Assembly (NCBI GenBank): GCA_964534185.1
Contig: CAZHOH010000002.1
Location: 10,558 to 74,557, forward strand
Origin: Candidatus Woesearchaeota archaeon
GTDB lineage: Archaea; Nanobdellota; Nanobdellia; Pacearchaeales; GW2011-AR1
Length of the DNA stretch: 64,000 nucleotides
Reading direction: 5' to 3'
Shown: positions 6,000 through 59,106 of the stretch, in pieces
Layout of the letters: every line of letters starts with the position of its first letter
Position numbering within the stretch: position 1 is the first letter of the stretch
Position numbers and translations under genes: made by a program
Notes under the pieces: generated by a model
What the model was told of the DNA's origin: nothing
The model's input: the letters and a program-made list of their open reading frames with translations, nothing else
The model's database searches: none

Positions 6000-7148
6000 T
6001 CACTCGCGGCCGAAGGTCCATTTCGCCACCCGAATCGCCTCTGGATCCCCCGTCTCCTTGCCTGGCTCATCACTCAATTTTACCACCGGAATGCCGTTCA
6101 CCGAGCGCAGCTTCATCACGATGCTGAGCGGGATGCAGTCGTCGAAGTCGTTGGTCAGGTGGGTTCCGATGCCGAACGACACCTTGAATGTGTCCTTGTA
6201 AGCCTCCTGCAGGGCGATGGCCTTGTCGATGGTCAGGCCGTCGCTGAAGATGATGGTCTTCCCCCGGGGGTCGACCCGCTGTTTCTCGTAGTGCTCGATC
6301 GCGGCCTGCGCGAACTCGAAGGGGTCTCCCGAGTCATGCCTTACCCCGTCGTACGCCCTGCTCAGTTCCATGTCGAAGTCCTCCCAGAACGCCTTGGTTC
6401 CGAATGTGTCGGTCAGGGCAATTCCGAGGCTCGCCTGGTAAACGCGCATCCACTGCCGGAGCGCGTAGCGATTGGCGTGACGCAGGGACTCAAGCGCGCT
6501 GACCCCCATTACCCACTCGTGCGCCATGGTTCCGATGGGCTTGAGCCCCATCGACCTGGCGAAGGAGACGTTGCTGGTCCCTGCCAGCGTCCCGAACGAC
6601 TTCAATTCTCCCAGCACGGCCGAATGCGCCATGTGGCACCGGCGCCGACGGGTCCCGAAATCGGCGTAGCTGGCTCCCGCGAGCTCCATCCGCTGCCCCT
6701 TGGCGCGAGCCTTCCTCACCGCCTCCTTGACGAGGTCCTCGTCCCGGCCGTCCCATGCCAGGTTATGACAGGCCTCGCACACGAGGGCAAGCAGGGGAAC
6801 CTCCCAGAGGATAGCGCGGCACCATGGCCCCCGGACGACGATCTGCAGGTCGCCGTCGTGGACCACCTCCACCTCCCGGGGGTCGAAGCGGTAGTTGCGC
6901 AGGTACTCGACGTACTGCGGCTTGAAGAACGGGATCGACCGGAGGTAGTCGGCCTCGGCGTCCGTCATCTTGAACTTCCCGACCGTGCCCGTGACCATGC
7001 GCTCAACCTCGCCTGCCACCCCCGGGGGGAGGGGAGCGGTGCCGCGGTTGTGGAACCGGTATTCCACCTGCGCGTCCGGGTAGAGTTCCAGGACGGCCTG
7101 CTGCATGGTGAACTTGTACAGGTCGTTGTCCAGAATGCCAGTGCTCAT
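6000..7148 (-). CDS. pncB: nicotinate phosphoribosyltransferase
   Basis: Colinear with E. coli PncB as I recall it (DNDLYKFTMQQAV, WEVPLLA, FGTRRR, GTSN, GTMAHEW, GIALTDT, RHDSGDP, SFGIGT, KLSDEPGK). Start reset to ATG 7148 (MSTGIL), which has a GAGGGGG RBS. Confidence 0.93.
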   Translation of the reverse strand: MSTGILDNDLYKFTMQQAVLELYPDAQVEYRFHNRGTAPLPPGVAGEVERMVTGTVGKFKMTDAEADYLRSIPFFKPQYVEYLRNYRFDPREVEVVHDGDLQIVVRGPWCRAILWEVPLLALVCEACHNLAWDGRDEDLVKEAVRKARAKGQRMELAGASYADFGTRRRRCHMAHSAVLGELKSFGTLAGTSNVSFARSMGLKPIGTMAHEWVMGVSALESLRHANRYALRQWMRVYQASLGIALTDTFGTKAFWEDFDMELSRAYDGVRHDSGDPFEFAQAAIEHYEKQRVDPRGKTIIFSDGLTIDKAIALQEAYKDTFKVSFGIGTHLTNDFDDCIPLSIVMKLRSVNGIPVVKLSDEPGKETGDPEAIRVAKWTFGRE

Positions 7149-7310
7149 GCCTGCCCCCTCGTTCCTTGTTTGTTTCCTGCTACGGGCATCCCTGAGGTCG
7201 CCGCCTGATAAACCTGTTTCCTCTCCAGACCGCGCGGACCCGGTCAACGCAGGATGACGCGGATCTCGTGATTTCCTGGGCTTCACGATTTCCGCAACTG
7301 TTTACCTGTT

Positions 7311-8363
7311 CTACGAGTCTCCTCCCGCCACTTCGAAGATGCGGTCGATTACTCTCTGCTTGAGTCCTTCCCACAAAGGCCCTTCCCCAACGGGGGCCGC
7401 AATGCCGAGTGGAGCGCTGGCGCCTCCCTGTCCCATCTTGCCCCCGGAGTGCTTCTTGCCGAAGATGCGCTTTGCGAAGTCGTCGACGTCGATCGACTTG
7501 TTCTGGCTACGGATGCTGGCCTGCAGATTTTCCCCGACGACGGAGAATATGATTGAGGTCTCGACTCCTTCCAGCCTTATCATCTTGTCCGCGATGACAG
7601 GCAGGCAGTCTCGCTTGGCCGCGGCGATGATCCCGACGGTGCCCACGAACGTGGAGTCGCGCTGCTCCCAGTTCCCGTCCTTGTTTATCTCCTTCTCAAG
7701 CTCGAAGAAGTATCGCGGGTAGGGGTACCTCTCTATCTGACTGAGTTTGGCCCGGTCAATGAAGGCGCTCAGTTCCCTGGACGCCTCCCAGTCCCTGTCA
7801 GTGCAGGTGTCAGAGGTAAGGTCCTGCGTGTCGCTGCGGATGCCAAAGAAAAGGGCGGTGGCGACCCTGGGGTCCAAGCTACTGGCGCTGGCGCTGGCGC
7901 CATCAGGCGTCTCATCCCCTTCTTCCTCGCGCCGGATATGCCCGACTACCCCCTTGATCATCTCCCAGACGAGGGTGCTGGCCGAGCCAACCTGATCTAT
8001 GATCGATATGCAATCCTTCTCCGACTCCTCAGACCTGTGATGGTCAATGACGAGTATGGGGTGGCCCTTCGGCTTGGAGTTAGCCGTCGTCGCGTCGACT
8101 ATGACACATCCCTGATAGTTGTCGTTGTCATCCGAGTCCTTTATCATCCCGACGTCGAGCGTGTTCAGCATGGTCTTGTTCTGCGGATGGGATATCTCGC
8201 CCGTATACAAGATCCTCGCCTTCCTGTCGAACGAGAAGGAAAGCAGCCACTGCATCCCCATGGCCGCGCCGATGGCGTCGGGGTCCGGGGTTCCATGGGT
8301 GACGATAGCAACCGGAGAGTCATCAAGCGACCTCAATCTGTCCTTGATCGCTTTTACGTCCAT
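7311..8363 (-). CDS. DHH/DHHA1 phosphoesterase (NrnA-like oligoribonuclease / pAp phosphatase family)
   Basis: DPDAIGAAMG (motif I), LVIDHHRS (DHH) and C-terminal GGKMGQGGA (DHHA1-like Gly motif). Confidence 0.8.
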   Translation of the reverse strand: MDVKAIKDRLRSLDDSPVAIVTHGTPDPDAIGAAMGMQWLLSFSFDRKARILYTGEISHPQNKTMLNTLDVGMIKDSDDNDNYQGCVIVDATTANSKPKGHPILVIDHHRSEESEKDCISIIDQVGSASTLVWEMIKGVVGHIRREEEGDETPDGASASASSLDPRVATALFFGIRSDTQDLTSDTCTDRDWEASRELSAFIDRAKLSQIERYPYPRYFFELEKEINKDGNWEQRDSTFVGTVGIIAAAKRDCLPVIADKMIRLEGVETSIIFSVVGENLQASIRSQNKSIDVDDFAKRIFGKKHSGGKMGQGGASAPLGIAAPVGEGPLWEGLKQRVIDRIFEVAGGDS

Positions 8364-8420
8364 GCCTGCCTCGCTTCCCTTTAACTGCTGACACCCTGGG
8401 GCAATTCGTCAGGCTACGAC

Positions 8421-9995
8421 CTAGGTCTCGAACTCGACAAGGTAACGCAAAACGTTCTGGTCTTCTTGATAAACGATCCACTCGTTGTTCATCACATGGC
8501 TGTAATTCGCCTTGCCAAACACGCTGTGGCAACCCCCCGGGGGGGAGGTATACCCGCGCGGGCCTGGAGCCAGGAAGGGTTTCCCGAGGACGACGTCGCC
8601 GAGGAACATGAAGGCCTTGCGGCCTCGCACTGCGCCGCGCCCTCCGGACCAGAACGAGTTCTGTAGGCTACAGTATCCCGCGGCCTTCTTCCAGTCGTCG
8701 GCCCAGTACGTTCCAGGTCCGAACATGGCTCCTGTGATGGCTACGCCCACCAGCTTCTTCGGCATCATCAGGCTCTTGGACAAGATTCCGCTGACATTGA
8801 CGGAGCGGGTGCCGTGGAACAGCAGGGCGGTTCTGGAGTCCCTATGGGCCGAGAGCGTCCCGTTCAGGTCGGGTCGCGAGCGAGGCGAGAACATAGGCTT
8901 CTCCCGGGAACTGGGCTTCTGCGCGGCAATCTGCGCCTGCTTGGCGTCGAACCGATGGCGGCAGGTCGGCTTGTTCGCCTCCCAGATGTTATGGACCTTC
9001 ATTTGCCCAAGTCCCCTGTGGAGGTTTCGCGTCGCCCGGGGCAGGAAGTCCATGATCCACTTGCCTTCCCCCCGGGGGTCAAGCCAGCGCATCTCGAGGT
9101 CTATCCCATCCAGGGGATTGCGGGTCATGTCGTCGATGTCCTCGAGGCTGGTGGACAAGGCTTGCTCGAACGCGTCAAGGTCCTGTTGCCATGTCAGGAT
9201 GTTCTTTTGCGACAGAACCCACGTGGACTCGTCCGCGCCGACGGGCTTGACCTTCGGGATGCGCGAGTAGAGCAGCCGACTGAATTCTCTCAGCCGCTTG
9301 TCCTTGACCTGACGGTCAGGGTCGTCGCCTACTTTCGACAGCCGCTTCAGGGCCTCCGTGAGGATGTGCCTACCTTCGTTGATGGCATCCTGGGTAGGGA
9401 TGCTGTCGTCCGCCATCGAGTTGCGCGTGTAGTTGGCGGTCGCTACGTTTAGGTCGTGCATCAACTGCATGACCTTCGGATCCGGCAGGGAGTCCGCGCG
9501 CCTCGCCTTGCTCGACTTCTTGGTTTTCTTGGCGGGAGCGTCTCCCGTCTGAATCTTCTTCGCCCCGGGCAATCCGGTCGACCTGGTTGCCTGCGGGCGG
9601 ACGAGGTAGCAGTCCTTGCCCTTTTTTGCCCGCAGGGCCTGTATCCCGGAGATCTTCGTCCATTCTCCGCGCTTGTCATTCTTGCTGTGCAGTTGCTTCT
9701 CGTATGCCTTCCGCGCCTCGTCCTCGCACATGGCCATGACGAACTGGAAGTCCGGACGGGAAGCGCCGGTGCGGCCCCACTCGAAATAGGCGTACCATTC
9801 CCCCGTCTGCTTGGATCTGACGACGGCCCCGTGGTAGAACTTGTTGGTGTCCCGTCCGTCCTGGGTGAAACATCCCAGGTCAGCGACCCCAGTGTCCTCG
9901 AACTCCCCATCCTTGACCGCAGGAGGGCCAAAGCACTCGAAGTCATCGGGGCCATGGCAAGCAGGAAACTGACGTTTTGGTAGTTTGGTAGCCAT
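8421..9995 (-). CDS. poly(ADP-ribose) polymerase-like protein (WGR + helical + PARP catalytic domains)
   Basis: WGR: KFYHGAVV...WYAYFEWGRTGASRP. Catalytic H-Y-E: LLFHGTRS, GPGTYWADD, NNEWIVYQEDQ. Confidence 0.85.
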   Translation of the reverse strand: MATKLPKRQFPACHGPDDFECFGPPAVKDGEFEDTGVADLGCFTQDGRDTNKFYHGAVVRSKQTGEWYAYFEWGRTGASRPDFQFVMAMCEDEARKAYEKQLHSKNDKRGEWTKISGIQALRAKKGKDCYLVRPQATRSTGLPGAKKIQTGDAPAKKTKKSSKARRADSLPDPKVMQLMHDLNVATANYTRNSMADDSIPTQDAINEGRHILTEALKRLSKVGDDPDRQVKDKRLREFSRLLYSRIPKVKPVGADESTWVLSQKNILTWQQDLDAFEQALSTSLEDIDDMTRNPLDGIDLEMRWLDPRGEGKWIMDFLPRATRNLHRGLGQMKVHNIWEANKPTCRHRFDAKQAQIAAQKPSSREKPMFSPRSRPDLNGTLSAHRDSRTALLFHGTRSVNVSGILSKSLMMPKKLVGVAITGAMFGPGTYWADDWKKAAGYCSLQNSFWSGGRGAVRGRKAFMFLGDVVLGKPFLAPGPRGYTSPPGGCHSVFGKANYSHVMNNEWIVYQEDQNVLRYLVEFET

Positions 9996-10019
9996 TTCTT
10001 TCGTCTTCTTTTCCCAGGG

Positions 10020-10907
10020 TTACAATAGCCTGCTTCCTGTGAACTGCCAGTCCGTGAACAACTTCCCGTCCGGGAAGAAGATCAATTGCCGGATGACGTT
10101 CGTATCCGGCTCCAGCGTCAGGCAGTTCGACACACAGACGTTTTGTCCCCGGAAGTCATAGACAGCGGCGCCGTGGGGCAGTGTGTAGAGCTTGGTCCCC
10201 TCCGTCTGAACATGCTCTTGAATAGCCAGACACGCGAGATCGCTGAGGCGATTCAAGTCGATCCACTTGTTGACCAACGGACTAGTGGTTGTCGCGTCCC
10301 ACGCGGGTGTCACGGGCCTCCATGTCAGTTGCTCGACTTTGTTCTCCAAGCAGAAGTCCACGAGGCGCTCGAAGGCCTTCGGGCCATCAACGCCCCCCTT
10401 GATGCCGATCGTGGTATACCTTACGATCAGGCCCGCGTCATGGGCGCGCTTGATGGCGTCCTTCATGTCAAGGAGCTTCTTCCTCTTTGGCCAGTAGATC
10501 CTGTGGTTGAGGTCGGGATCCGATCCGACGTTGGATATCATGATGGTAGTCATGCCCGCGCTGTACCAGTCGACAAGCATGTGCCCAACCCGATATCCTC
10601 TCCAAGTGGATTCCCCGAGGAACGCGCCGTTCGTTTGTAGTTCGACGAACGGGAATCGACCCTCGAGTTCCGCCAAGTAGGTGTATATCTGATTCGGATA
10701 GAGGGTAGGCTCCCCTTTCCCCGTTATGAGGACATTGGTGATGCCGCATCTCTCGGCTATCTGCACCGCCTTGCGCAGGTTCCGTATGTTCAATTCGATC
10801 AGAACATCGCAGCCTTTGTTCGTCTCCGTCATGCGCGACACGCAAAACGGGCACTGCGCGTTGCAGGCCTTGGTCCCCGCGACAAGCGACATCGTCTGAA
10901 ATTTCAT
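10020..10907 (-). CDS. radical SAM enzyme, unknown substrate
   Basis: CNAQCPFC (CxxxCxxC) at residues ~15-22 and ITGKGEPTLYP (SAM-binding GGE-like). AAGGAG RBS. Confidence 0.8.
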   Translation of the reverse strand: MKFQTMSLVAGTKACNAQCPFCVSRMTETNKGCDVLIELNIRNLRKAVQIAERCGITNVLITGKGEPTLYPNQIYTYLAELEGRFPFVELQTNGAFLGESTWRGYRVGHMLVDWYSAGMTTIMISNVGSDPDLNHRIYWPKRKKLLDMKDAIKRAHDAGLIVRYTTIGIKGGVDGPKAFERLVDFCLENKVEQLTWRPVTPAWDATTTSPLVNKWIDLNRLSDLACLAIQEHVQTEGTKLYTLPHGAAVYDFRGQNVCVSNCLTLEPDTNVIRQLIFFPDGKLFTDWQFTGSRLL

Positions 10908-11000
10908 CTGACATTCTCCTTATGTTCAATCGTCGGATGGCGCGGACCCTGTACCCCCCCTACTCCGATCGACGGATACGTCTTCTTGTCCCCTCACGTT

Positions 11001-11195
11001 TTACGGGTCTGCCGCGTGGAGTTCGACGGGGGAAAGCGATTCGAGAGACACTGCCCCAGCCTTCCCGCGGAGCCACGCCACCTCGCCCCCCGACAACAGG
11101 TGGCCTATGTATCGAACCTCGTAGACATTATCGTCGTGCGGACCGCCGATGATCGGGTGGTAACGTACCTTCTGACCTACACGGCATTCTGACAT
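11001..11195 (-). CDS. small hypothetical protein (64 aa)
   Basis: ORF 11001..11207. ATG at 11195 (MSECRVGQKVRYHP). Overlaps the 3' end of the upstream gene by ~68 nt. Confidence 0.4.
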   Translation of the reverse strand: MSECRVGQKVRYHPIIGGPHDDNVYEVRYIGHLLSGGEVAWLRGKAGAVSLESLSPVELHAADP

Positions 11196-11883
11196 TTTCA
11201 CCCCCATGGTCTTTGGCCAAGTCGGAAACCTCTTTGGTGCGAGCGTCTTCTTTTCCTAGTTCCTGCTCGCAATAACGCGCGACCTTGACGATCCGTCTGG
11301 CAACGAAGTTCTTAAGCCAACTCCTCGTTGCAGGCAGCGCGTCTAGGTGGCCCATGACTTTGTTCGCATATTCCTGGCCTCCGATCAATACGATTGCGAC
11401 GGCGGCGTTAGCAACAATGGCACTGAAATACGGGATGTCAAGCAGCAGGTCGTTGGCATGAGATGCAAACACCTGAAAAAGAGTTTCCTCCAGGTTCGCA
11501 TGAATATTGTCGGGGATAACGGTTGCCTTTCTCGCGACCATCTTGGTCGCCTCGCATACCAGAGCCTGGTTTTTCATGCTCATGAAACGAGCGATCACGT
11601 CACAGTCCAATGAACTACGGGAAGCCATCGCAATGAAGAGCCTGACGCCTGCGGAGGTAAAAACATTCATGTATTCGTTGTCGCGATGCTTTTCCACGAA
11701 ACTCACGACAGCATCCCTGAGCGGCTTCTCGCCGCGAGTCCACAAAGGAGCAAATGAATACATGTTGGCTAGGAACACCCCCTCGGCAGATAGAACCGCC
11801 CTGCCCTCCAAAGAGGGGTCAGTCATCTTGCCGTCAACAAACTGCTCGATTTCCCGCATCATCCGCTCGATTTTATCCGACAT
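11128..11883 (-). CDS. hypothetical helical protein (251 aa)
   Basis: ORF track entry in the co-directional block. No motif recognised. Confidence 0.6.
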   Translation of the reverse strand: MSDKIERMMREIEQFVDGKMTDPSLEGRAVLSAEGVFLANMYSFAPLWTRGEKPLRDAVVSFVEKHRDNEYMNVFTSAGVRLFIAMASRSSLDCDVIARFMSMKNQALVCEATKMVARKATVIPDNIHANLEETLFQVFASHANDLLLDIPYFSAIVANAAVAIVLIGGQEYANKVMGHLDALPATRSWLKNFVARRIVKVARYCEQELGKEDARTKEVSDLAKDHGGENVRMPCRSEGTLPPDHRRSARR

Positions 11884-13304: not shown

Positions 13305-14096
13305 TCAACTACCGAACCCCCCCATGGCCGTCTGGCTGAAACTGGCGCCGCCCTGGGACGCGCGTACCGCGCTCTGGCTGAAGACCTGGAAGGCCTTCCT
13401 GACTTCGGTCTCGCTGTTGCCAGGGGTCAGGATCCACTCGTCCTGGACGCCCATCTGCTGGAAGATGCGCTTGAAGTCGGCCCCCGCGTCGTCCTTGATC
13501 CCCATGGCGGCAATGATGTGGCACTCCTGCCGCAACATGTCCTCGACCAAGGGCTTGACGTCCAAGGCGCTGGATGAGGAGTGCTGGTCCGCTCCGTCGG
13601 TAACGATCAGGGTGATCGTCCGGGCCGGCACTCCAGAGTCCGCGAACTCGCGGTGCTTGGCCATGACCGTGCCCAGCAGGGCGATGGTCTGGTCGTACAG
13701 CGGCGTCCCCTTACGCGGGTCGTAGTTCTGCGGCGTCATGACCTCGGCGTCCTCCAGCTTCCGGTAGGGGAACAGCACGTCCCCGTTGAGATAGCGGGTG
13801 TGCGCCAGAACGGCGTCCGTCTGCTTCGATTTCTTCAGCGCATCCAGAACCAGGTTGTGCCCATCGATGACCGCCTGCTTGTTGCCTGCGAACTGGATCG
13901 ACCCGCTGTCGTCCGGCATCATCGTCACCAGAACGACCTCGCTGGCCTCCACGTCGTCGGCGGAGATGCCCAGACCGGCCTGAATCTGTGCCCCCAGGTC
14001 AATGGAGTTCAGGGCCTGCATCGACTGCAGGCTCAGATCCCCCTCGTCATGGGCTTGCTTGAATACCTCGCCCAAGTCTGCCACGTTGCTGCTCAT
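13305..14096 (-). CDS. von Willebrand factor A (TerY-like) protein
   Basis: MIDAS residues: MPDDSGSIQF (DxSxS) and LIVTDGADQHS. Start reset to ATG 14096 (MSSNVADLG) with a GAGGAG RBS. Confidence 0.85.
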   Translation of the reverse strand: MSSNVADLGEVFKQAHDEGDLSLQSMQALNSIDLGAQIQAGLGISADDVEASEVVLVTMMPDDSGSIQFAGNKQAVIDGHNLVLDALKKSKQTDAVLAHTRYLNGDVLFPYRKLEDAEVMTPQNYDPRKGTPLYDQTIALLGTVMAKHREFADSGVPARTITLIVTDGADQHSSSSALDVKPLVEDMLRQECHIIAAMGIKDDAGADFKRIFQQMGVQDEWILTPGNSETEVRKAFQVFSQSAVRASQGGASFSQTAMGGFGS

Positions 14097-14224
14097 GATC
14101 GTCTCCTCGTTCGATGAACCCCTCCCCCAACAAACTCCGCTGGAACGGCTCGACACAAAAACAGTAAGCGTTGGCACGTTCGATTGGAGTCCGGGGGAGG
14201 GGCTCGTATGTCGGTCAGCCTTAG

Positions 14225-15292
14225 CTACAGGCTGATGCCATCCCATTCCTCGATGGGCTTGGTGGATCTGACGACATGCATGCCAGCGTCCTTGAATTTC
14301 TGGATCGCCGCTACGGCGTCGTCGGTAAAGTCCGCCACGAACCCTCCCTGGCCGTCAGGGATCGCGACCGAGCTCATGCAGTCCTCCATGATGTAGCACT
14401 TGCGCGCCAGGGACTCGTCCTGCGCGCGGATCTCGCTCAGCAGGTCGTCGATCGTGAACTTGACGCAGTGGCTCGCGGCCTGCCCCGCGATGATGACGGC
14501 GTCGCTGTCCAGCAGCGTGTTCAGAAACCGGGTGTTCTTCTGGCCCACCGGCTTGTGGTCCTGGGTTGCCAGAACCTCCGGGCGCAGGACGGAATAGTTC
14601 TCCGTCAGCAGGGCGCCCCCCTTGACCTCCAGATCCCCCTTGGAGGACCGGGCGAAGGAATGGAAAGCCCGCGCCTCGGCGACTGTTCCCGCGAGCGCGT
14701 GTCCCTCAGAGCCGAGCAGGCAGTGGAAGGGCCAGAGGTAGAGCTGGTACTTGCCAGCCTTCTCCAGCTCCTGGCAGTAGTGCTTGACGTAGCTGACCAG
14801 CCACGTGTAGTTGCCGTTGCACAGCCACTTCGCCATGGCGGGGTTGGGATTCAGCTTGCCTTCCGAGATGTCCTGGGTGGAGACGGTCGTGTGCGCGGCC
14901 GGGGCCTTGCCGTCCTCGCCGACCCAGAAGCTCGGGAAGAATACCTGGAACGGGAAGTGAGTGTCCATCGTGCAGGTCACGTCGGTGATGGCGGGGAGGT
15001 TCTTGTAGATGAACTCCGCTGTCCGCGCGGAGTCCTCGATCGCGCCGCGTCCGCCGCGGCCACCTACGTAGAGCGTCCCCTCGGGGAAGCAGAAGTCCTT
15101 CTGGGCGTCGATCAGCAGCAGGTGGACGCGGAATTTGTCGGCGCCGGACGGAGCCACGCCATGCTTCTTAACCCACTCCTGCGCCTTCTCGAACAACATG
15201 GCCTCGTTCGGGCGGTAGCCCCACTTCTCGGCGGACTTCGGGTCGTAGAAGTCAGGCAGGGGCAGTTGCTTGACTGGCGTCGCGGTGCTCAT
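14225..15292 (-). CDS. isochorismatase-family cysteine hydrolase, nicotinamidase-like
   Basis: LLLIDAQKDFCFPEG (catalytic Asp region), MDTH (possible metal site) and IIAGQAASHCVKFT (nucleophile Cys). Start reset to ATG 15292 with an AAGGAGAA RBS. Confidence 0.75.
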   Translation of the reverse strand: MSTATPVKQLPLPDFYDPKSAEKWGYRPNEAMLFEKAQEWVKKHGVAPSGADKFRVHLLLIDAQKDFCFPEGTLYVGGRGGRGAIEDSARTAEFIYKNLPAITDVTCTMDTHFPFQVFFPSFWVGEDGKAPAAHTTVSTQDISEGKLNPNPAMAKWLCNGNYTWLVSYVKHYCQELEKAGKYQLYLWPFHCLLGSEGHALAGTVAEARAFHSFARSSKGDLEVKGGALLTENYSVLRPEVLATQDHKPVGQKNTRFLNTLLDSDAVIIAGQAASHCVKFTIDDLLSEIRAQDESLARKCYIMEDCMSSVAIPDGQGGFVADFTDDAVAAIQKFKDAGMHVVRSTKPIEEWDGISL

Positions 15293-15303
15293 CTTCTTCT
15301 CCT

Positions 15304-17148
15304 TCACTTCAAACTCAGGACGCCAACCTCCTGGCGCCCGGTGACGTACACGCCATTCTTCCCAGCGAAGAGATGGCAACCTTCATTCACGAACGGCTCC
15401 GTGTCGGGGAACTCCTTTTCCACCTCCAGTAAGCCGCCGTTGTTCCTGATCCGCCTCAAGCCCTCGTCAGAGGCGCTTAGCAGCATCTTGTCAAACGCCC
15501 ACTTTCCCCTGATTCCGGATAGCCAGGGATGGTCGGCCTGGTCGGTCTGCTCCGTCGCCAGAACCTCGCCGTGGCGACTGACCACGTGGCATTCGTTGAC
15601 CTTCCTCTTGCCCTGCTGCGTGCTCACGAAGAACCAGCAGCAATGATCCCCGAAAAAGCAGGTCGAGTCTATCAGTTGGCCGCGAACCTTGACGTTGACG
15701 GAGTCGTTGATCTTTCCGTTGACGTCGAATACGAAGGCCACGCTCAACTGGCCGGCGCGATAGAAGCCCAGGCCGAACTCCGGGCCCACCCAGAAGAGGG
15801 TCTGGTTCCTCAGCACGTCGCCTATCCTCTTGTATCCCAGTATATCATCACGATAGAGTACACCGTCCTGCAACCAGAACTTATCGCGCCCGTTGGCGTC
15901 GAATATGGGCAGGTTGCCGTAGAAGTCGACCGGCAACTGCTCCAACTTGCCATCCTTGTCCACGACCAGCGCCGGCTTCCCGGACATGCCAATGAGAGTC
16001 TGATTCCCGCAGATGCGAAAGCGCATCTGGTGATGCGCGGACCCCTTGAGGACCTTTACTCCCCCTTCTCTCCAAAAATGTCCGTCTTCCCAATAGAGCC
16101 ACCTCATCTGGCCATCCTGCATGGCGGCGAACAGGATGGTTCCCTTCGTGGAGAATATCTTCTTGTATTCCACGTTGCCCTTGACGACCTCCTTAACGAG
16201 CGGAACGACCTTCTGGCACTCCGGGCAGGACTTTCTCGCGTGCTCGAAGCCGCAGCCCGGGCAGACGCGCCACTGCGTGTTCAGCAACTGCAGCGGGAAC
16301 GGACCCCGCGTGTCCTTCTCGAACACCTGGCGTAAGTAGTCCGCCAGGTCGTCCGGCAGGGACTTGAGGGGCCGCGCGGGCTTCGGGTACTTGACCTCCG
16401 AGTCAAATACCGTGATCCGGTGCAGGGGCCGCGCCGGGTGGGGCACCTTGCGCTTCTTGTCCTTGGGACGAAAAACCCCCCCGTATGGGTCAACGAACAT
16501 CAGGGTCTGCATGACCATGACCGCGAAGGCGTACCAGTCGGAGTCCTCGTTGTGGGGCCTGACCAGGACGGGCCTGTTCTGGCGCGCGTCGCACAGCAGG
16601 GGATCCACGAATCGCTCCGTGTAGACACGGCAGGGAAACGTCCTGAACTGCCAACTGTCAGCGTCGATGACGTAGGGCGTATCGCCTTTGACGAGGACGT
16701 TGAGGTCGTTGAAGTCACCAACCACCGCGTCCTTCTCGTGGATCGCCTCGACCACCTGGGCCAGTTTCTTCAGAATCCTGTTGACGACATTGTTGTTGAC
16801 GCCATGCCGGAAGGACTTCTCTCCATAGCGGAGCAGAGGCTCTGCCCCCTCGACCATGTCCATCACGTAGCCAACGATCTTTCCTTTCCTGTCGGTCGCA
16901 ACGTCCAGCGGGACGATGACGTTCGACGGCACCCCCCGGGGGAACTGGGTCAACTTCTGCTGGTGCTCCTCTATGCGAATCCTCGCGGCCTGGCGCTGGT
17001 CGACGGTCAGGTGGTCGGGATGGTTCTCTCCCTTGAAGACTTTGAGCGCGTGACCACCGGGGATCCGGTAGACGTCAGCTTCGCCGCCTTTGCCTATGCT
17101 ATCGGTAGGAGCAACGCTTATGCGCTTGCTTCTGACGTAGACTTGCAT
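15304..17148 (-). CDS. Ser/Thr protein kinase with zinc ribbon and C-terminal repeat domain
   Basis: GKGGEADVY...ALKVFK (Gly loop plus Lys), VVGDFNDLNVLV (catalytic loop), VIDADSW (DFG-like) and CPGCGFEHARKSCPECQK. About 270 aa of beta-rich C-terminus. Confidence 0.85.
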   Translation of the reverse strand: MQVYVRSKRISVAPTDSIGKGGEADVYRIPGGHALKVFKGENHPDHLTVDQRQAARIRIEEHQQKLTQFPRGVPSNVIVPLDVATDRKGKIVGYVMDMVEGAEPLLRYGEKSFRHGVNNNVVNRILKKLAQVVEAIHEKDAVVGDFNDLNVLVKGDTPYVIDADSWQFRTFPCRVYTERFVDPLLCDARQNRPVLVRPHNEDSDWYAFAVMVMQTLMFVDPYGGVFRPKDKKRKVPHPARPLHRITVFDSEVKYPKPARPLKSLPDDLADYLRQVFEKDTRGPFPLQLLNTQWRVCPGCGFEHARKSCPECQKVVPLVKEVVKGNVEYKKIFSTKGTILFAAMQDGQMRWLYWEDGHFWREGGVKVLKGSAHHQMRFRICGNQTLIGMSGKPALVVDKDGKLEQLPVDFYGNLPIFDANGRDKFWLQDGVLYRDDILGYKRIGDVLRNQTLFWVGPEFGLGFYRAGQLSVAFVFDVNGKINDSVNVKVRGQLIDSTCFFGDHCCWFFVSTQQGKRKVNECHVVSRHGEVLATEQTDQADHPWLSGIRGKWAFDKMLLSASDEGLRRIRNNGGLLEVEKEFPDTEPFVNEGCHLFAGKNGVYVTGRQEVGVLSLK

Positions 17149-17942
17149 CTTCTCACCACCACTAGCGTCGTGTCGTCCGGCAGCAGGCCCTTCTGCTCTT
17201 CCAGAAGACGGTTCTCGTAATCCACCTTGCGCGAGTTCCTGTTGATCAGGCGCAGCCGTCGAGAGACGGCGAAGGAGTTCCTGAAGTAGCGGTCATCAGC
17301 CCAGAACTGGGAGAGAGCGCCAACCTCCTCGCTCTTCCCCGGGAGTCTCCGGCGCCTGAGTTCCGGGATGTTATCAACCCCGTCGGTCCCGACAAGAATG
17401 GACTCGATGTCCGCCGTCTTCCACTCCCAACGATCGAAGGCGCTCCTGTCCCGCTGGTCCGGGTTCGTAACCGCGTATCCGATATAGGACGGCGCGTTGT
17501 TCTGGTCGATGGAATGAACGACGAGTCCCTCCGACAAGGTGCAGCGGTTAATCAGGCCGTCCCCGCACGACAGCACGGTTGTCTTCTCGTCGTCCATGAC
17601 CAGGACGATGGAGGTAAAGAGGAAGAAATCTGAGACGGCACTCGAGAGGCTGTCACTGACCCATTCCGAGACCACGGACAACTTCGAGGCCACCTCCATG
17701 CGCAGCCTCTCCTGGTCGACGCGGCCCAGCCTCCTTTTCTGCGCCCATGCCGACATCACGAGCATGCGGGCCCCGAGCAGCGCGCCTGCCTCGCTATACC
17801 TCCCGCTGCCGCAGCCGTCGCACACGGCCGCGACAATTAGGTTGTCGTCGGTCTTCCAGAAGTAGGAGTCTTGGTTGTTCCGGCCGGCCATCTCGTGATC
17901 GCGGCCCCTGACGCTCCCACCGGCAATTTGGAATCCGTTCAC
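17118..17942 (-). CDS. PP2C-family protein phosphatase
   Basis: RGRDHEMAGRNNQDSY, AAVCDGCGSG, VGTDGV. GTG start. 31-nt overlap with the kinase start. Confidence 0.85.
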   Translation of the reverse strand: MNGFQIAGGSVRGRDHEMAGRNNQDSYFWKTDDNLIVAAVCDGCGSGRYSEAGALLGARMLVMSAWAQKRRLGRVDQERLRMEVASKLSVVSEWVSDSLSSAVSDFFLFTSIVLVMDDEKTTVLSCGDGLINRCTLSEGLVVHSIDQNNAPSYIGYAVTNPDQRDRSAFDRWEWKTADIESILVGTDGVDNIPELRRRRLPGKSEEVGALSQFWADDRYFRNSFAVSRRLRLINRNSRKVDYENRLLEEQKGLLPDDTTLVVVRRCKSTSEASA

Positions 17943-20722: not shown

Positions 20723-20822
20723 GGTCCGCGCGCCTTGGAAAGTTACTTGGGTCCGCGCCGGAGCACGGCGGCGTGACACTAAGTAAAAAAGACAGACTTT
20801 TGTCTTGACCAAGGAGCGCGCT

Positions 20823-21467
20823 ATGAGTAACCTGACTTTCCGCTACCCCGACGACCCCGCACGGATGCCGGCGGACCAACTCCCCAGACTGGAGAGAATG
20901 AGTCCGGGTCTATGGTGGGGGTTTACAAAGGGTGACGGATGGCGACGGCCTGCCTACTGCGAAGGGAGTGGAGTCTGGACGTTCCACTCGAAGCGCGGTG
21001 ACGGAATCGAGGCCCGCAAGTCCCCTCCCAAGGGGCTAGTCGAACTTTTCTCCGCGATGGATTGGCCTGAAGGTATCGCCATCGACATGGAGTGGATGGG
21101 GCCCCGGCTACGGGAACATTTCCCAACCGAAGACGACCACGAGTTCTGGATCTTCGACATGACCTACTGCGCGTGGAAATGGCAGGGAAAGACACCCTTT
21201 GCAAAAAGGTGGGTGCACCTGTCAGAAATCTTCCACGACGCGGCCCGCGGCAAACCCGAGAACTTCCCCCGGGTGAGGCTGCTGGCGCCCTACAAGGAGA
21301 ACCTGGCGCAGGCGTTCGAGCAGGAACAAGCAAACCCCCTGTCCGAGGGCCTGGTTCTGCGGCACGTCCGAGGGCACCTCGTTGGCGACCTCAACGGACC
21401 CAGGAAGAATCCGGGCGCCATGAAGAAAGTAAAGTACCGGAACGCGAAAGAGAAGACTGCATTCTAA
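20823..21467 (+). CDS. minimal ATP-dependent polynucleotide ligase (nucleotidyltransferase domain only)
   Basis: FTKGDGWR (motif I KxDGxR), WIFDM (III), EGLVLRH (IV), MKKVKY (V). Start reset to ATG 20823 with an AAGGAG RBS. At 214 aa there is no room for an OB domain. Confidence 0.65.
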   Translation: MSNLTFRYPDDPARMPADQLPRLERMSPGLWWGFTKGDGWRRPAYCEGSGVWTFHSKRGDGIEARKSPPKGLVELFSAMDWPEGIAIDMEWMGPRLREHFPTEDDHEFWIFDMTYCAWKWQGKTPFAKRWVHLSEIFHDAARGKPENFPRVRLLAPYKENLAQAFEQEQANPLSEGLVLRHVRGHLVGDLNGPRKNPGAMKKVKYRNAKEKTAF

Positions 21468-21483
21468 TTATGATTCCGAGTTG

Positions 21484-21504
21484 CTCCCGGGTTTTGCCCG
21501 GGAG
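21484..21504 (+). promoter_or_regulatory. 8-bp GC hairpin CTCCCGGG-ttttg-CCCGGGAG between the ligase and sigma genes
   Basis: Read directly. It sits 17 nt after the ligase stop and 27 nt before the sigma ATG. No U-tract. Confidence 0.35.
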
Positions 21505-21531
21505 ATGATTGAAAGAAAAAGGAGGATGACC

Positions 21532-22407
21532 ATGGGCAGAGGCAACGAGAAGGACGATATTCGCTTGTATCTCGAGCAAGCAGGGGAGTATGAATTGCTT
21601 ACGCGCGATGAGGAGATGCGTCTCGCGAGGGCCTGGCGTGAGAACCATGACGAGACAGCACGAGAGAAACTTGGCTTGCATAACCTGCGTCTTGTCGTGA
21701 GCATCGCCGTCAAGTACACGTGCTCCTTCATGTCTCTCATGGACTTCATCCAGGAGGGCAACATCGGGCTGATGAAGGCGATCGACAAGTTCGACCCAGA
21801 CAGGGGAAACAGGCTCTCCACCGTCGCTACTTGGTGGATATGGCAGTCGATCGGTCGCGCGGTAAGCGAGAAAGGCGGCAACGTAATCCGGCTCCCCGTC
21901 AATACGAGGAACATCCTGCACAAGTTCAGCAAGACCAAGTCGGAACTCGCCCACAGTCTCATGCGCGACCCGGAAGACGAGGATGTCATCGAGGCGATGG
22001 ACCTGTCGGAGCCCCAGGAGGCGTGCCTGAGGAACGCTTTGGCTTCCAGGGTCGTCTCCGTGGAGGACGAAGAGAGTAGCTGCGGGATCGAGAACCTCTT
22101 CGGAGAGCTCGAGGAGAACATCTCTGAGTTCGATGACTACCGGGTAAGGGACGCCATCAGCATTGCGCTTAACAGCAAGGAGCGCATGATCATCAGCCTC
22201 CGCTACGGGCTAGACGACGGCAAGCAACGCACGCTCGATACGGTGGGCCAAGAGCTCGAGCTGACGAGGGAGCGCGTCCGCCAGATCGAAAGCCAGGCCC
22301 TGGACAAATTGTCGCTCTTCCTGTCAGGGTCGCTTATTTATTTAAATCCACGCCACTCGGGCAAATCCGGCTTGCAGCAGGACTGCAAATCAGGAGTTGA
22401 CTGCTGA
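21532..22407 (+). CDS. sigma-70 family RNA polymerase sigma factor
   Basis: DFIQEGNIGLMKAIDKFDPDRGNRLSTVATWWIWQSI (regions 2.2-2.4) and LDTVGQELELTRERVRQIESQALDKL (region 4.2). ATG 21532 lies 6 nt after GGAGG. Confidence 0.9.
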   Translation: MGRGNEKDDIRLYLEQAGEYELLTRDEEMRLARAWRENHDETAREKLGLHNLRLVVSIAVKYTCSFMSLMDFIQEGNIGLMKAIDKFDPDRGNRLSTVATWWIWQSIGRAVSEKGGNVIRLPVNTRNILHKFSKTKSELAHSLMRDPEDEDVIEAMDLSEPQEACLRNALASRVVSVEDEESSCGIENLFGELEENISEFDDYRVRDAISIALNSKERMIISLRYGLDDGKQRTLDTVGQELELTRERVRQIESQALDKLSLFLSGSLIYLNPRHSGKSGLQQDCKSGVDC

Positions 22408-22408
22408 C

Positions 22409-22678
22409 CTAGCGGCCGCCCGCTAGCGACTGTAACCAATTCTCCGTACCTATATTCACGCGACCACTCCAAAGGACCTCATCAAGGTCCTGATCAGCCA
22501 CCTCTATATCCCAAGCTACCCGATCAGTCGATTGATGGCCGGTGAGGACAATATTATCATCAGTCACCTGCCACATCTGCGGAATACCACTGCGATCCAC
22601 TTCAAATGCAGTTGCCTTCCAAGGTCCACCAGAAGCCAACATCTGCACAACCGTAGGGCCGGTTGGATCCTCAGGCAA
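22409..22678 (-). CDS. hypothetical protein (89 aa or shorter)
   Basis: ORF convergent with the sigma gene, in a lower-GC islet. The start (TTG 22678 or ATG 22642) is uncertain. Confidence 0.4.
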   Translation of the reverse strand: MPEDPTGPTVVQMLASGGPWKATAFEVDRSGIPQMWQVTDDNIVLTGHQSTDRVAWDIEVADQDLDEVLWSGRVNIGTENWLQSLAGGR

Positions 22679-22703
22679 ATTATCAGCAATCCTATCGATT
22701 TCA

Positions 22704-23216
22704 TTAATCCGTCTTCGCCCCTTTAGGTACCCATTCTACGAAGTCAGCGCAAATTTGATAAAATTCCTGACCCTCCTCATCAGGATGGTGGAACGACAAT
22801 ATCTGTATCCCCCGATACAGCCGTGTAGATTCTACTGTGAGAAGCCTCCCCTTCAACTCCTCACCCCTTTTCCTGGCCCATTCCTTTTCTTCCTTCGTAG
22901 CCCTATCATCCCCTTTGGGCCAAGTCACTATCCTGAAGAAATCGCCCTTCTTGAATCTGTGAGACATCCTCAATCCTGCAGAGCCAATCTTGCCTCCTCC
23001 ATGCCCCTTTTTTCCGGACTGCTTATCAAGATACAACATCTTAGGAACAACCACCGAAGTATACTCACGTACAGTGTCCTCATCTGGCGAGAACTCACGA
23101 TCATCTGGATCACAATAAACACGACAATAAGCCAAAAACCGCGCCTGCAGCTCATCATCAGTCTGCACATAATAAAAAGCGTCCTCACCACTATTCATCA
23201 TAACCTGGATCAACAT
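22704..23216 (-). CDS. hypothetical protein (170 aa)
   Basis: ORF 22704..23255. ATG 23216 (MLIQVMMNSG) is preceded by GGAAGGAGAG. Lower-GC islet. Confidence 0.5.
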   Translation of the reverse strand: MLIQVMMNSGEDAFYYVQTDDELQARFLAYCRVYCDPDDREFSPDEDTVREYTSVVVPKMLYLDKQSGKKGHGGGKIGSAGLRMSHRFKKGDFFRIVTWPKGDDRATKEEKEWARKRGEELKGRLLTVESTRLYRGIQILSFHHPDEEGQEFYQICADFVEWVPKGAKTD

Positions 23217-41130: not shown

Positions 41131-43065
41131 CTAAAGCATCGCCTCGAACTCGTTCATTCCTATGATCTGTACGCCCAACTCGCGGGCCTTCTGAGCCTTG
41201 CTTTTCGTGCTGGACGTATCCTTGAGGACGAGGTAACTGAGTCCCTTGCTCACGCTCTTCTTTTCCTTGCCTCCCGCCGCTTCCAGACGTTGCCTCTGAT
41301 CAGGATCCATTCGTACCCCAGAGAAGCAGAAGGTCTTCCCGTACAACTTGCCGTCGGACACCTCCTTCTTGAGCGGGGTCACCTTGATTATCCTGACCAG
41401 CCTCTCTATTAGATCCTTGCGGGACTGGATCGACTCTGTAACCTCCTTGGCCGGCTCCTCGCCGAACGTTCCCTTCTCGCTGAATGGCTTTCCGACGAGA
41501 TCCTTGGGTGCGAGGCCAAGATATTCCTCGACGGTATCGATGCCGATAAGGCGAGCGCGAGACCTGCCGAGCATCTTGATGGACAGCGATCCCATGAACA
41601 TGTCGATCGGGAGTTCTCGCGTCTTGTCAATCTCTGACACGATCTTCTTGGCGTTGCTGCCGATGACCCCGTTGCCCACCGGGCACTTCGACACGCTGGC
41701 CTCGTCGAGCGAGTAAAGGTCATCTATGTCCTTGACCAGACTCGCCTCGACCAGGGACCTGAGCGCCGTGGAGCCAAGTTGCTTGATGTCTAGCTTGTCA
41801 ACCCAGTTCCTGATCCTCTGGAAGTAGAGGTCTGGGCAGGTGGGGTCGGTCACCAGCAGGCGCTTGCCCTCCCAGGACAGGTCGTATTCCTTGCCATCGG
41901 AGGCCTTCCATGCCCCCGGGGGAGGAAAGGGGCCGGCCGTGTTCTTCTTGGCCACCCTCGTTATGTGCGGGATGATGTCCCCTCCCTTCTCCACCTCGAC
42001 GACGTCTCCGACGTTGATGTTCTTCTCGCTGACGTACTTGAAGTTGTTCAGCAAGCAGTGCGTAACGGTCGTCCCCGCTAGCCTCACAGGCTCGAACACG
42101 GCGGTGGGTATGATCGCCCCCGTTTGGCCGATGGTAAGCTCTATCGAGAGGATCTTGGACTCGGCCTTCTCCGTCTCGAACTTCCAAGCCACCTGCCCCC
42201 GGGGGCGGCTCCCCCCGTCGCTGTACCCCATGGATTCCTGCTTCTCGAGGTCCTCGACCGCGACGACCATGCCGTCGATCTCGAACTCGAGTTCGACGCG
42301 GGAGTCCTCGTATCGCTTGCGGCACTTGACGAGGTCGTCCCAGGTCCGGCAACGGAACCACCGGATCGTCTCGAAGCCCATGGACTCGAGCGCCTTGAAC
42401 TTGTGGCTCTGCTTCTTGAACGCAACCTCGGGGTGAACCAGGTCGAACGCCCGGAACGTGATGTGCTTGTTCGCGCTGGGGTCGCTCTTCGCCACGATGA
42501 CGCCGTTGCCGCCGTTGCGGGGGTTTTCCTTGTCTGGGAGATGCTCCCTCCACGCGCTGACGGACAACTGGGCCTCACCCCGGACGATGACCTGAGCCTT
42601 GACGTCGATCTTCTCCGGCAACCCCTCCCACATGCGGGCGTTGCGGGTGATGTCCATGCCGATCTTGCCGTCGCCGCGGGTGGCAACGCGCCAGAGGCTG
42701 CCCCCGCGATAGACCGCCTCGGCGCTGGAGCCGTCAGCCTTGTCCGACACGATGACCTCGGGCTTGCCGGCCTTCTCGAACCATGCCAGGATGCCGGCCT
42801 CGTCCTTGGCCTTGTTCTGGCTTCCCATGTGCATCAGAAGCCTGACCTCGTCCCGATGCCCGGAGACAGGGGCGCCGACCTCGCTGAAGAACGAGTGCCC
42901 CGGGGCCGCGCGCCGGAGCTCGTCGCGAAGCGCGTCGAACTCCGCGTCGGTCATCAGGGTCATGCCCGTATTGTAATAGGCCTCGCTGGCCGCCCTCAAG
43001 TCGGCAGCGATCTCGTCAGGGGACCTCCTGTCGCCTGGCCCAAAGTTGATTGCTGGATCTTTCAT
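41131..43065 (-). CDS. ligA: NAD-dependent DNA ligase
   Basis: EAYYNTG...TDAEFDAL (Ia), SDKADGSS (KxDG), OB, Zn/HhH region, and C-terminal BRCT (GKTFCFSGV...LSYLVLKD). Start reset to ATG 43065. Confidence 0.92.
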   Translation of the reverse strand: MKDPAINFGPGDRRSPDEIAADLRAASEAYYNTGMTLMTDAEFDALRDELRRAAPGHSFFSEVGAPVSGHRDEVRLLMHMGSQNKAKDEAGILAWFEKAGKPEVIVSDKADGSSAEAVYRGGSLWRVATRGDGKIGMDITRNARMWEGLPEKIDVKAQVIVRGEAQLSVSAWREHLPDKENPRNGGNGVIVAKSDPSANKHITFRAFDLVHPEVAFKKQSHKFKALESMGFETIRWFRCRTWDDLVKCRKRYEDSRVELEFEIDGMVVAVEDLEKQESMGYSDGGSRPRGQVAWKFETEKAESKILSIELTIGQTGAIIPTAVFEPVRLAGTTVTHCLLNNFKYVSEKNINVGDVVEVEKGGDIIPHITRVAKKNTAGPFPPPGAWKASDGKEYDLSWEGKRLLVTDPTCPDLYFQRIRNWVDKLDIKQLGSTALRSLVEASLVKDIDDLYSLDEASVSKCPVGNGVIGSNAKKIVSEIDKTRELPIDMFMGSLSIKMLGRSRARLIGIDTVEEYLGLAPKDLVGKPFSEKGTFGEEPAKEVTESIQSRKDLIERLVRIIKVTPLKKEVSDGKLYGKTFCFSGVRMDPDQRQRLEAAGGKEKKSVSKGLSYLVLKDTSSTKSKAQKARELGVQIIGMNEFEAML

Positions 43066-43214
43066 GAAAAACTCTCCGAGGAGACCATCGCCTTCGGCGG
43101 CCAAACTCGTCGAGGACAAGGCCTCGACGATCGGTCCCCGGCGAAGCGCGAGCCGCCCCGGGGCCTAGCCCCGGGAATCCGCACCCTTCAGGGGGCGGAG
43201 GATGTCAAGTCTTG

Positions 43215-59097: not shown

Positions 59098-59106
59098 TTT
59101 CTTCTC

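Follow-up and report, generated by a model that had tools for sequence, protein, structure and literature searches.

The window analysed here, a 64,000-nucleotide stretch of contig CAZHOH010000002.1 (assembly GCA_964534185.1, labelled Candidatus Woesearchaeota archaeon), encodes a 524-residue member of the PARP (poly(ADP-ribose) polymerase) family, termed P0001. We found that P0001 is a complete PARP of the PARP1-3 type, in which a WGR domain, a helical regulatory domain (HD) and an ADP-ribosyltransferase (ART) catalytic domain are joined in one chain and the His-Tyr-Glu (H-Y-E) triad is intact. The contig that carries the gene is probably a fragment of a huge uncultured phage. We lean towards regarding P0001 as a ligand-gated PARP1-3-type transferase of this phage, which would act in phage DNA replication and repair and whose NAD would be resupplied by recycling enzymes of the phage itself.

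Domain architecture and conserved residues

The open reading frame (ORF) extends on the minus strand from an ATG, consistent with the family consensus MxTKL, through its stop over 524 codons, and the plus-strand frame of the same interval is interrupted by stops. A sequence-only reading of this stretch had described a 524-residue protein with a WGR domain, a helical part and a catalytic domain, leaving the strand unstated, and Pfam, AlphaFold2 and Foldseek agree on this layout. In the profile search proposed there as a check, the PARP catalytic domain (E=8e-21, 74.9 bits against a cut-off of 26.7, residues 330-496) and the WGR domain (E=1.8e-6, 28.4 bits against a cut-off of 22, residues 43-108) both matched above cut-off, and Pfam PARP_reg gave no match on P0001. 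NCBIfam has no model for P0001, and PADLOC likewise has none matching it or the cellular PARPs described below. The protein contains the motifs YFEWGRTGA (residues 70-78), LLFHGTR (391-397), GPGTYWAD (426-433) and NNEWIVY (503-509).

When P0001 was compared with the PDB by phmmer, PARP1, PARP2 and tankyrase ranked first, and in this alignment H394, Y430, Y441 and E505 pair with H862, Y896, Y907 and E988 of PARP1. Y441 thus provides the second stacking Tyr, and K437 corresponds to PARP1 K903. Residue conservation was counted in a 73-sequence family alignment, in which H394, G395, Y430, K437, Y441, N503, N504, E505 and R75 are invariant and W73 and G74 are each kept in 72 members. The intact H-Y-E triad that had been read from the letters is therefore borne out by careful alignment, being present in 73/73. 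Four cysteine positions (C21, C42, C88 and C129) are conserved across the family in the N-terminal/WGR region; at one of them P0001 itself has Ala (A88, codon 9732-9734), in place of a Cys conserved in at least 90% of the family.

The nicotinamide pocket of P0001 departs from that of its relatives in one residue. S904 and G863 of PARP1 hydrogen-bond the carboxamide of nicotinamide (PMC12655458), and the Gly of this pair is kept in P0001 as G395, but the Ser is not. The residue that pairs with S904 is A438 (codon 8682-8684), and P0001 is the sole exception in a family where Ser is found in 72 of the 73 members.

The AlphaFold2 model, which was built on the family alignment (predicted local distance difference test, pLDDT, 88.2; predicted template modelling score, pTM, 0.83), consists of a beta-rich N-terminal/WGR domain, a disordered basic linker at about 138-172, six helices between 173 and 288 (173-193, 202-222, 226-231, 233-245, 263-281 and 284-288) and an ART fold. 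The top PDB matches in Foldseek are WGR-HD-ART chains, from PARP1 in complex with a DNA double-strand break (4dqy_C, 8g0h_B) and from PARP2 (6x0l_P), with TM scores of 0.6-0.7 over about 540 columns, and the PDB 'catalytic fragment' entries (HD+ART, about 350 residues) align over about 400 columns with TM scores of 0.65-0.72. Because of the six helices and the fold match to HD+ART fragments, what had been called a helical linker is read as an HD-like regulatory domain, even though PARP_reg is silent; on the predicted model, P0001 is an HD protein by fold, without a match in sequence. The basic linker is a candidate DNA-binding or automodification segment.

Distribution and phylogeny

At least 794 proteins are homologous to P0001, with identities of 52-60%. 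Loci in GTDB species-representative genomes came from an alignment-based search, P0001 alone as query having returned none, and 35 of these 36 loci belong to Planctomycetota, including chromosomes of 4-9.5 Mb; the sole match outside this phylum is a Bacillus protein with 29% identity. INPHARED holds one full-length copy, with 53% identity, on the unannotated 595-kb 'uncultured phage' LR756511.1, and ART-only matches in XacN1, Xoo-sp13 and the Klebsiella and Stenotrophomonas jumbo phages. In IMG/VR, full-length copies were found on 26 contigs, many of them 230-533 kb long.

A maximum-likelihood tree of 166 sequences, which is unrooted, was labelled with 31 viral-context and 23 cellular-genome sequences. 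One branch separates the viral from the cellular labels (Shimodaira-Hasegawa-like approximate likelihood ratio test 99), and none of 500 label shuffles was as good. P0001 falls on the viral-only side together with the 26 IMG/VR contigs and LR756511.1, and the sister side consists of chromosomal Planctomycetota. Five contexts inspected on the viral side are phage-like, with many small hypothetical ORFs, CRISPR-Cas, EF-Ts, RtcB, S-adenosylmethionine synthetase and ClpX, whereas two members on the cellular side lie amid ordinary chromosomal genes.

On a 373.8-kb phage-like contig that carries a PARP homologue (P0013), a type I-E-like Cascade-Cas3 set lies 3 kb downstream of PARP (L054:14960-21617); thus, CRISPR-bearing huge phages recur in this PARP clade. 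Among the chromosomal Planctomycetota/Myxococcota PARPs P0044, P0065, P0066 and P0079, some have Lys/Ala/Pro-rich N-terminal tails of 90-150 residues that resemble the nucleoid proteins histone H1 or HC2, and one relative matches Pfam PF07382. Such tails suggest tethering to the nucleoid.

The element carrying the gene

The bin to which the contig was assigned is 1.25 Mb in size, consists mostly of contigs with about 34% GC and is chimeric. Two contigs stand apart, the window's own (C1) and C2, each with 58% GC and a length of about 107 kb. They are 99.86% identical over 106 kb and differ chiefly in a terminal CRISPR array, which has 34 or more repeats in C1 against 19 in C2, with about 1.6 kb of extra spacers in C1. 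This array (repeat GTTTCAATCCACCCCGGGCTTAAACCCGGGGGAGAC) lies upstream of the window (C1:1-9032) and is followed by Cas3, Cas7, Cas8c/Csd1 and Cas5d, and no Cas1, Cas2 or Cas4 was seen beside it. The system is of type I-C and interference-only, and the element that carries it is phage-like.

Within the window we found two C5 DNA methylases, a sigma-70 factor, the NAD-dependent DNA ligase LigA, an HD-OB nuclease, a peptide deformylase, genes for sugar-nucleotide enzymes and glycosyltransferases, and many ORFs without a Pfam match. Together with the RNA-repair genes described below, this gene content resembles that of a jumbo phage. Several ORFs of otherwise unknown type match phage-only PHROG families, including phrog_33734 (1e-80), phrog_5931 (9e-58) and the exonuclease phrog_284 (2e-50), and two collagen-like proteins resemble tail fibres. 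The jumbo phages XacN1, Xoo-sp13, Weasels2 and SCTP-2 encode homologues of the 698-residue phrog_33734 protein, and in XacN1 and Xoo-sp13 this homologue lies about 10 kb from the phage's own PARP. Neither tRNA nor housekeeping genes were found in the 64-kb window.

NAD recycling genes

Two genes for recycling of nicotinamide lie within 9 kb of the PARP gene and on the same strand. The first encodes nicotinate phosphoribosyltransferase, PncB, which scored 453 bits with NCBIfam NF003704 (cut-off 379) and 415 bits with TIGR01514 (cut-off 270) and matched PDB 1yir at 2e-86. The second encodes a PncA-like nicotinamidase of the cysteine hydrolase type. It has 3858 homologues at 60-65% identity, many of which are named 'nicotinamidase' by NCBI and some of which match Pfam Isochorismatase; its own direct match to this Pfam family (E=0.0076) is below threshold. 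Its direct match to M. tuberculosis PncA is weak, with three colinear catalytic motifs (IDAQKDFC, WPFHC and AASHCV), so that the PncA Asp, the WPxHC motif and the catalytic Cys are kept. LigA, the second NAD consumer of the element, is 31 kb distant from PARP. On the contig of one relative, a NadE-Prs-NAPRTase set is found near its PARP. None of PncB, the nicotinamidase, LigA and the Ser-to-Ala change in the pocket had figured in the sequence-only reading, and the three genes are informative context.

Within the interval 13305-17942, the nicotinamidase gene lies among ORFs that resemble vWA and kinase proteins (the latter by a weak Pkinase match, E=0.003) and a gene for a PP2C phosphatase. The PARP of phage XacN1 (ORF414) is directly followed by a vWA-domain protein (ORF413), and it is possible that the PARP-vWA link is a recurring one.

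Gene neighbourhoods of viral and cellular relatives

Genes within ±10 kb of PARP were counted in 33 viral-side and 37 cellular-side loci. A full-length reverse transcriptase (RT) is present in none of the viral loci and 23 of the cellular ones, and a domain of about 90 residues, described below and referred to as FTAF[DE]-type, in 15/33 and 25/37. The corresponding viral and cellular counts are 6/33 and 3/37 for ARH, 4/33 and 2/37 for LigA, and 2/33 and 0/37 for PncB; DHH and radical SAM genes were each found in 1/33, this being the window itself, and 0/37. LigA adjoins PARP in two relatives (L047 and L051), and RuvC and an AP endonuclease are located near the Lignipirellula PARP copy, which speaks for an association of the family with DNA repair.

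In the 23 cellular loci (among L007-L034 and L055), PARP is encoded directly downstream of a 650-residue RT, as at L055, where the RT occupies 7997-9949 and PARP 10001-11620. The cellular-clade RT scored 515 bits (E=6e-155) with the PADLOC model RT_XIII, that of the type XIII retron; no RT is present on the window's contig. At its N-terminus this RT has a domain of about 90 residues (L055:7997-8270) with the pattern ..FTAF[DE][IV][ST]..H..K..VH...Y.R[TS]L...P..[FW].YH and no Pfam match. The same type of domain forms the N-terminus of standalone proteins of 210-360 residues encoded directly downstream of PARP in 15 of the 33 viral loci; such standalone ORFs include L051:14056-14697, L047:5599-6279 and L050:23064-23807, and they also occur in cellular loci without RT.

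Proposed role of P0001 and alternatives

By analogy with PARP1-3 and with the DNA-dependent enzyme of Herpetosiphon, the WGR domain of P0001 would bind a discontinuity in nucleic acid, e.g. a nick or a 5'-phosphorylated end. Binding would destabilise the helical domain and open the NAD site, in line with the allostery from WGR through HD to ART that has been described (bioRxiv 10.64898/2026.10.17.759577). P0001 would then ADP-ribosylate itself, nearby proteins or DNA ends with mono- or poly-ADP-ribose during phage DNA replication and repair. Each turnover would free nicotinamide, which the phage nicotinamidase would convert to nicotinate and phage PncB to nicotinate mononucleotide, the NadD and NadE steps being left to the host, and this recycling would feed the NAD consumers of the element, PARP and LigA. 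The radical SAM and DHH genes that flank PARP would stand outside this PARP/NAD unit. In this proposal, architecture, residues, fold, clade and the adjoining salvage enzymes are shown by the data, and the ligand, the targets and the chain length are inferred.

As to chain length, PARP3 retains the H-Y-E triad too. PARP3 belongs to the DNA-break-activated PARP1-3 group and makes mono-ADP-ribose only (bioRxiv 10.64898/2026.10.17.759577). H-Y-E is therefore necessary but not sufficient for polymer synthesis, and to take the triad as a signature of poly- rather than mono-ADP-ribosylation, as had been done for this protein, is an overstatement.

Several observations weigh against the proposed role. 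The catalytic function of the clade is predicted from sequence and modelled fold. A438 in place of Ser may lower the affinity for NAD, and the terminal branch of P0001 is long, its 0.6 being about 3.5 times the median (0.17). No eraser of the Macro, PARG, ARH or NADAR type was found on the 107-kb contig. The sequence-only reading had seen no PARG or macrodomain in the window, and the genome-wide search it had called for extends this: no match to Macro, PARG_cat_C, PARG_cat_microb or NADAR occurs anywhere in the bin, its single ARH is encoded on a contig with 30% GC (C21) that belongs to a different organism, and all Nudix matches are on low-GC contigs of the other organism and none on the element. 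Since the contig is incomplete and ARH is found near PARP in 6/33 viral relatives, this absence is weak evidence on the whole phage. The salvage route is also incomplete, because NadD and NadE were not found on the element; CTP_transf_like has no match in the bin and NAD_synthase matches only on a low-GC contig (C7), and these two steps would have to be supplied by the host or by unassembled parts of the phage. Furthermore, PncA or PncB is near PARP in just 1-2 of the 33 viral loci, so that the NAD link is a feature of this phage and not of the PARP family. The FTAF[DE]-type partner domain is absent from C1 and C2 (a hidden Markov model of 13 copies searched against six frames with --max gave its lowest E value, 1.2, on a low-GC contig unrelated to them), and the linkage of the sister clade to a retron RT suggests that something other than a simple DNA break may be the activating ligand. 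Finally, the Pfam families Terminase_6N and Terminase_6C have no match anywhere in the bin and the contig is an incomplete piece, so that the phage identity rests on gene content and phylogeny. Of the 'prokaryotic mobile element' that had been named as the carrier of the gene, the non-chromosomal nature thus stands, and gene content and the viral-only clade most likely make it a huge phage, albeit one for which the bin offers no terminase.

Alternatively, P0001 might be an effector of host takeover, a reading that we hold to be unlikely without being far-fetched. As proposed by Iyer et al. 2021 for jumbo-phage PARPs such as XacN1 BBA65562.1 (PMC7824862), it would mainly modify host proteins (RNA polymerase, translation factors, nucleoid proteins) in the manner of Alt, ModA and ModB of T4, possibly with chains, and its WGR domain would localise the enzyme on DNA instead of sensing damage. 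Of the ARTs known from viruses, those of the PARP family are some of the most frequent (PMC9503650), and the window has takeover-type genes of its own, namely the sigma-70 factor, the PP2C phosphatase and the kinase-like protein. However, the WGR-HD module is strictly conserved, which favours ligand-gated over constitutive activity, and the PARPs of the XacN1 type match the ART only (25-32% of the query) and thus have a different architecture. Moreover, the gene that recurs beside PARP in relatives is LigA and not one for transcription.

The retron linkage of the cellular clade raises a further, less probable explanation, in which the phage gene belongs to a conflict module derived from, or aimed at, a retron-PARP of the host lineage and serves as decoy, antagonist or means of superinfection exclusion. 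In the last case, PARP would be triggered by the ends of foreign DNA entering the cell and would deplete NAD, and phage PncA and PncB would buffer the phage's own needs. The starting point is that the Planctomycetota PARP follows a type XIII retron RT and is therefore probably a defence effector or sensor; the WGR domain of the family may read a specialised nucleic acid, the cellular form being a defence effector. The distribution of the full-length RT (23/37 cellular against 0/33 viral loci), its 515-bit score with RT_XIII, the pairing of type XIII retrons with a WGR-like protein (PMC7736814), the standalone occurrence of the RT's N-terminal domain beside PARP in 15/33 viral loci, and the NAD-synthesis genes that are common in jumbo phages and counter NAD depletion (PMC7824862) all fit such a module. 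Nevertheless, the element in the window has neither RT nor the small domain, PADLOC has no model for either PARP, the tree is unrooted, so that transfer may have gone either way, and the link of any RT-PARP cassette to defence is a conjecture. It would be a bold guess that huge phages hold a captured or ancestral version of the sensor-effector of an immune cassette, the type XIII retron-PARP of Planctomycetota. With equally slender odds, the cellular WGR would in that case read the state of the retron msDNA and PARP would run an NAD-consuming abortive infection; and the RT-free phage PARP, backed by nicotinamide recycling, might conceivably have been turned on the host system or on competing phages, which we again think improbable. 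If this were true, PARP-type DNA-damage signalling would have a root in prokaryotic virus-host conflict.

It is very unlikely that P0001 is an attenuated or non-catalytic copy which has mostly lost transferase activity and whose role is reduced to binding DNA ends. A438 against Ser in 72/73, A88 against a Cys of at least 90% conservation and a branch about 3.5 times the median would suit such a copy, but the H, Y and E of the triad, G395, K437, Y441, N503 and N504 are all kept, and replacement by Ala would cost one hydrogen bond and preserve the shape of the pocket. P0001 differs at 7 of the 191 columns with at least 90% conservation (family median 4, maximum 18) and is not degenerate, because this number lies within the family range. 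In addition, the strain variants C1 and C2 carry identical copies of the gene, and its frame is undisrupted. Judged by its residues, P0001 would be active rather than dead, although its NAD site may be weakened. That a Planctomycetota-like bacterium carries P0001 as an ordinary chromosomal gene, its contig having been mis-binned, with no mobile element involved, is scarcely credible: although 35/36 GTDB loci are in Planctomycetota, some on chromosomes of 4-9.5 Mb, 58% GC suits that phylum and no terminase was found in the bin, the window shares no synteny with any of the 36 genomic loci, P0001 is on the viral side of a split with 99% support, and the contig, with no housekeeping genes or tRNAs in 64 kb, has many phage-family matches and a CRISPR system without adaptation genes.

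Comparison with known systems

P0001 resembles the eukaryotic PARP2, PARP3 and C-terminal module of PARP1 in domain order, in the W-G-R and H-Y-E residues and in the equivalence of Y441 to Y907 and K437 to K903, and its predicted fold superposes on that of DNA-break-bound PARP1 and PARP2 over almost the full length. Unlike these proteins, to which it is 17-20% identical, it has no zinc fingers or BRCT domain and no recognisable Pfam PARP_reg, the Ser of the nicotinamide pocket is Ala, and a conserved 40-residue N-terminal extension with conserved cysteines is added. Compared with PARP1, it is about 28 residues shorter between the equivalents of G950 and S980. The bacterial DNA-dependent PARPs, such as those of Herpetosiphon aurantiacus and Clostridioides difficile CD160, share with P0001 the order WGR, (helical) part and PARP catalytic domain as well as H-Y-E. 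Many bacterial PARPs have no Pfam-detectable PARP_reg, yet have a helical domain in models (PMC5966428), and the Herpetosiphon PARP is DNA-dependent and makes long poly-ADP-ribose chains (PMC4245714). Surveys of bacterial PARPs covered 28-72 sequences in six phyla and make no mention of Planctomycetes (PMC5966428), in contrast to the family of P0001, which has at least 794 members and its own viral and Planctomycetota clades.

PARP-type catalytic domains in large phages are likewise known from the PARP/PART ARTs of XacN1 (ORF414, BBA65562.1), Xoo-sp13, Klebsiella phage FBKp34, Aeromonas phage Aeh1 and Cellulophaga phage phi4:1, and phage PARPs with H-Y-E are already in the literature (PMC7824862, PMC9503650, PMC4245714). 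These PARPs of cultured phages match the ART part only, over 25-32% of the query at 33-44% identity, whereas the clade of P0001 keeps WGR-HD-ART. Type XIII retron cassettes (Mx162/Mx65 type) are comparable to the cellular sister clade, in which PARP is directly downstream of an RT that scores with RT_XIII. According to Mestre et al. (PMC7736814), type XIII retrons pair with a 'WGR-like + HEAT/ARM' accessory protein, and ADP-ribosylation is not mentioned there; this published protein is not a PARP, and the window has neither RT nor the N-terminal domain of the RT. Finally, phage-borne enzymes that rebuild NAD precursors are known from KVP40 (NadV and NatV) and from the NAPRTase-NMNAT sets of jumbo phages, and phage NAD salvage has been read as sustaining those functions of the phage that consume NAD and as countering the NADases of the host (PMC7824862, PMC9503650). 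Here, the deamidated Preiss-Handler branch (nicotinamidase and PncB) is found instead of a NadV-type nicotinamide phosphoribosyltransferase, and the contig yielded neither an adenylyltransferase nor a NAD synthetase.

Bacterial WGR-PARPs, including DNA-dependent synthesis of poly-ADP-ribose, phage PARPs with H-Y-E and phage NAD salvage are thus already published, and P0001 is a well-characterised addition to the known phage and bacterial PARPs, not a new system. We found no description of the size of the Planctomycetota/huge-phage family, of its clean viral/cellular split, of full WGR-HD-ART in huge phages or of PncA paired with PncB in this phage. In eukaryotes, PARP1-3 have a central place in DNA repair, as they do in cancer therapy, and the relatives of these enzymes in prokaryotes and viruses have hardly been studied. 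Huge phages commonly carry the complete WGR-HD-ART module, as a lineage of its own (26 IMG/VR contigs and a 595-kb genome), and in this phage it is embedded with genes that recycle its by-product nicotinamide. P0001 therefore offers a compact, expressible model for asking which ligand gates a minimal PARP and whether the phage uses ADP-ribose chains. Outside the window, the pairing of the sister clade with the RT of a type XIII retron is the more surprising lead on the origin and function of the family.

Other features of the window

The features discussed are listed in Table 1. The radical SAM and DHH genes had been pointed out in the sequence-only reading as the neighbours of PARP, which they are; as partners they are not conserved, and since each is near PARP in only 1/33 viral loci, both are incidental neighbours.

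Table 1. Positions in the window (all on the minus strand) of the PARP gene, its domains and the associated genes, with the basis of each assignment
Feature	Position	Strand	Basis
WGR-HD-ART PARP gene (P0001), 524 residues	8421..9995	-	ORF; Pfam PARP and WGR; PARP1-3 best PDB matches by sequence and fold
N-terminal extension and WGR domain, residues 1-137, with W73-G74-R75	9585..9995	-	Pfam WGR; beta-rich fold, pLDDT >90
Basic Lys/Ser/Ala-rich disordered linker, residues 138-172	9480..9584	-	pLDDT 50-60, <50 at 157-162; length-variable gap region in family alignment
HD-like helical regulatory domain, residues 173-290	9126..9479	-	Six helices in model; HD+ART PDB fragments align
ART catalytic domain, residues 291-524, with H394, G395, Y430, K437, A438, Y441, E505	8424..9125	-	Pfam PARP; PARP1 alignment; column counts
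PncB, nicotinate phosphoribosyltransferase	6000..7286	-	Pfam NAPRTase 4.9e-64 and NAPRTase_N
Nicotinamidase, PncA-like cysteine hydrolase	14225..15379	-	Homologue names, catalytic motifs; true start probably downstream of TTG at 15379
LigA, NAD-dependent DNA ligase, second NAD consumer on element	41131..43119	-	Pfam DNA_ligase_aden 1.9e-31, DNA_ligase_OB 4.4e-23, BRCT
NrnA-like DHH/DHHA1 phosphoesterase	7311..8363	-	Pfam DHH 1.6e-10; PDB NrnA 5.7e-6
Radical SAM enzyme	10020..10907	-	Pfam Radical_SAM 1.6e-10

The DHH protein has 332 homologues, several of them with DHH and DHHA1 and named nanoRNase/pAp phosphatase. Its closest relatives are found in phage replication modules without PARP or PncB nearby, one of which contains UDG, RecA, DnaB, DNA polymerase A, gp32 and a 5'-3' exonuclease; another such relative is located near LigA. 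A function as dedicated eraser or as helper of PncB was considered and rejected in view of the NrnA-like homologues, the relatives in replication modules and a pyrophosphatase match of 53 bits against a cut-off of 283. The radical SAM enzyme gave only sub-threshold matches to subfamilies, in the N-terminal core (MoaA, QueE-like and viperin/pVip; NCBIfam, PHROG and PADLOC), and is assigned to none of them. A conserved operon of radical SAM, PARP, DHH and PncB was likewise rejected, as tblastn of 16 window proteins against the 36 genomic loci matched PARP alone.

RNA-repair genes are clustered at 20805-25599, 44386-45276 and 52496-53566, and encode an RNA ligase, a 747-residue kinase-phosphatase-Rnl1 fusion (Pnkp-like), a Thg1-like tRNA-His guanylyltransferase and an RlaP nucleotidyltransferase; on contigs of PARP relatives, RtcB and Tpt1 are found near PARP. 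At 57000-64000, and on to about C1:83000, GC falls to 47% from a level of about 60% and the GC3 signal disappears, the genes being co-directional after the glycosyltransferase gene at 55354-56613, and this stretch has the appearance of an island that the element acquired recently.

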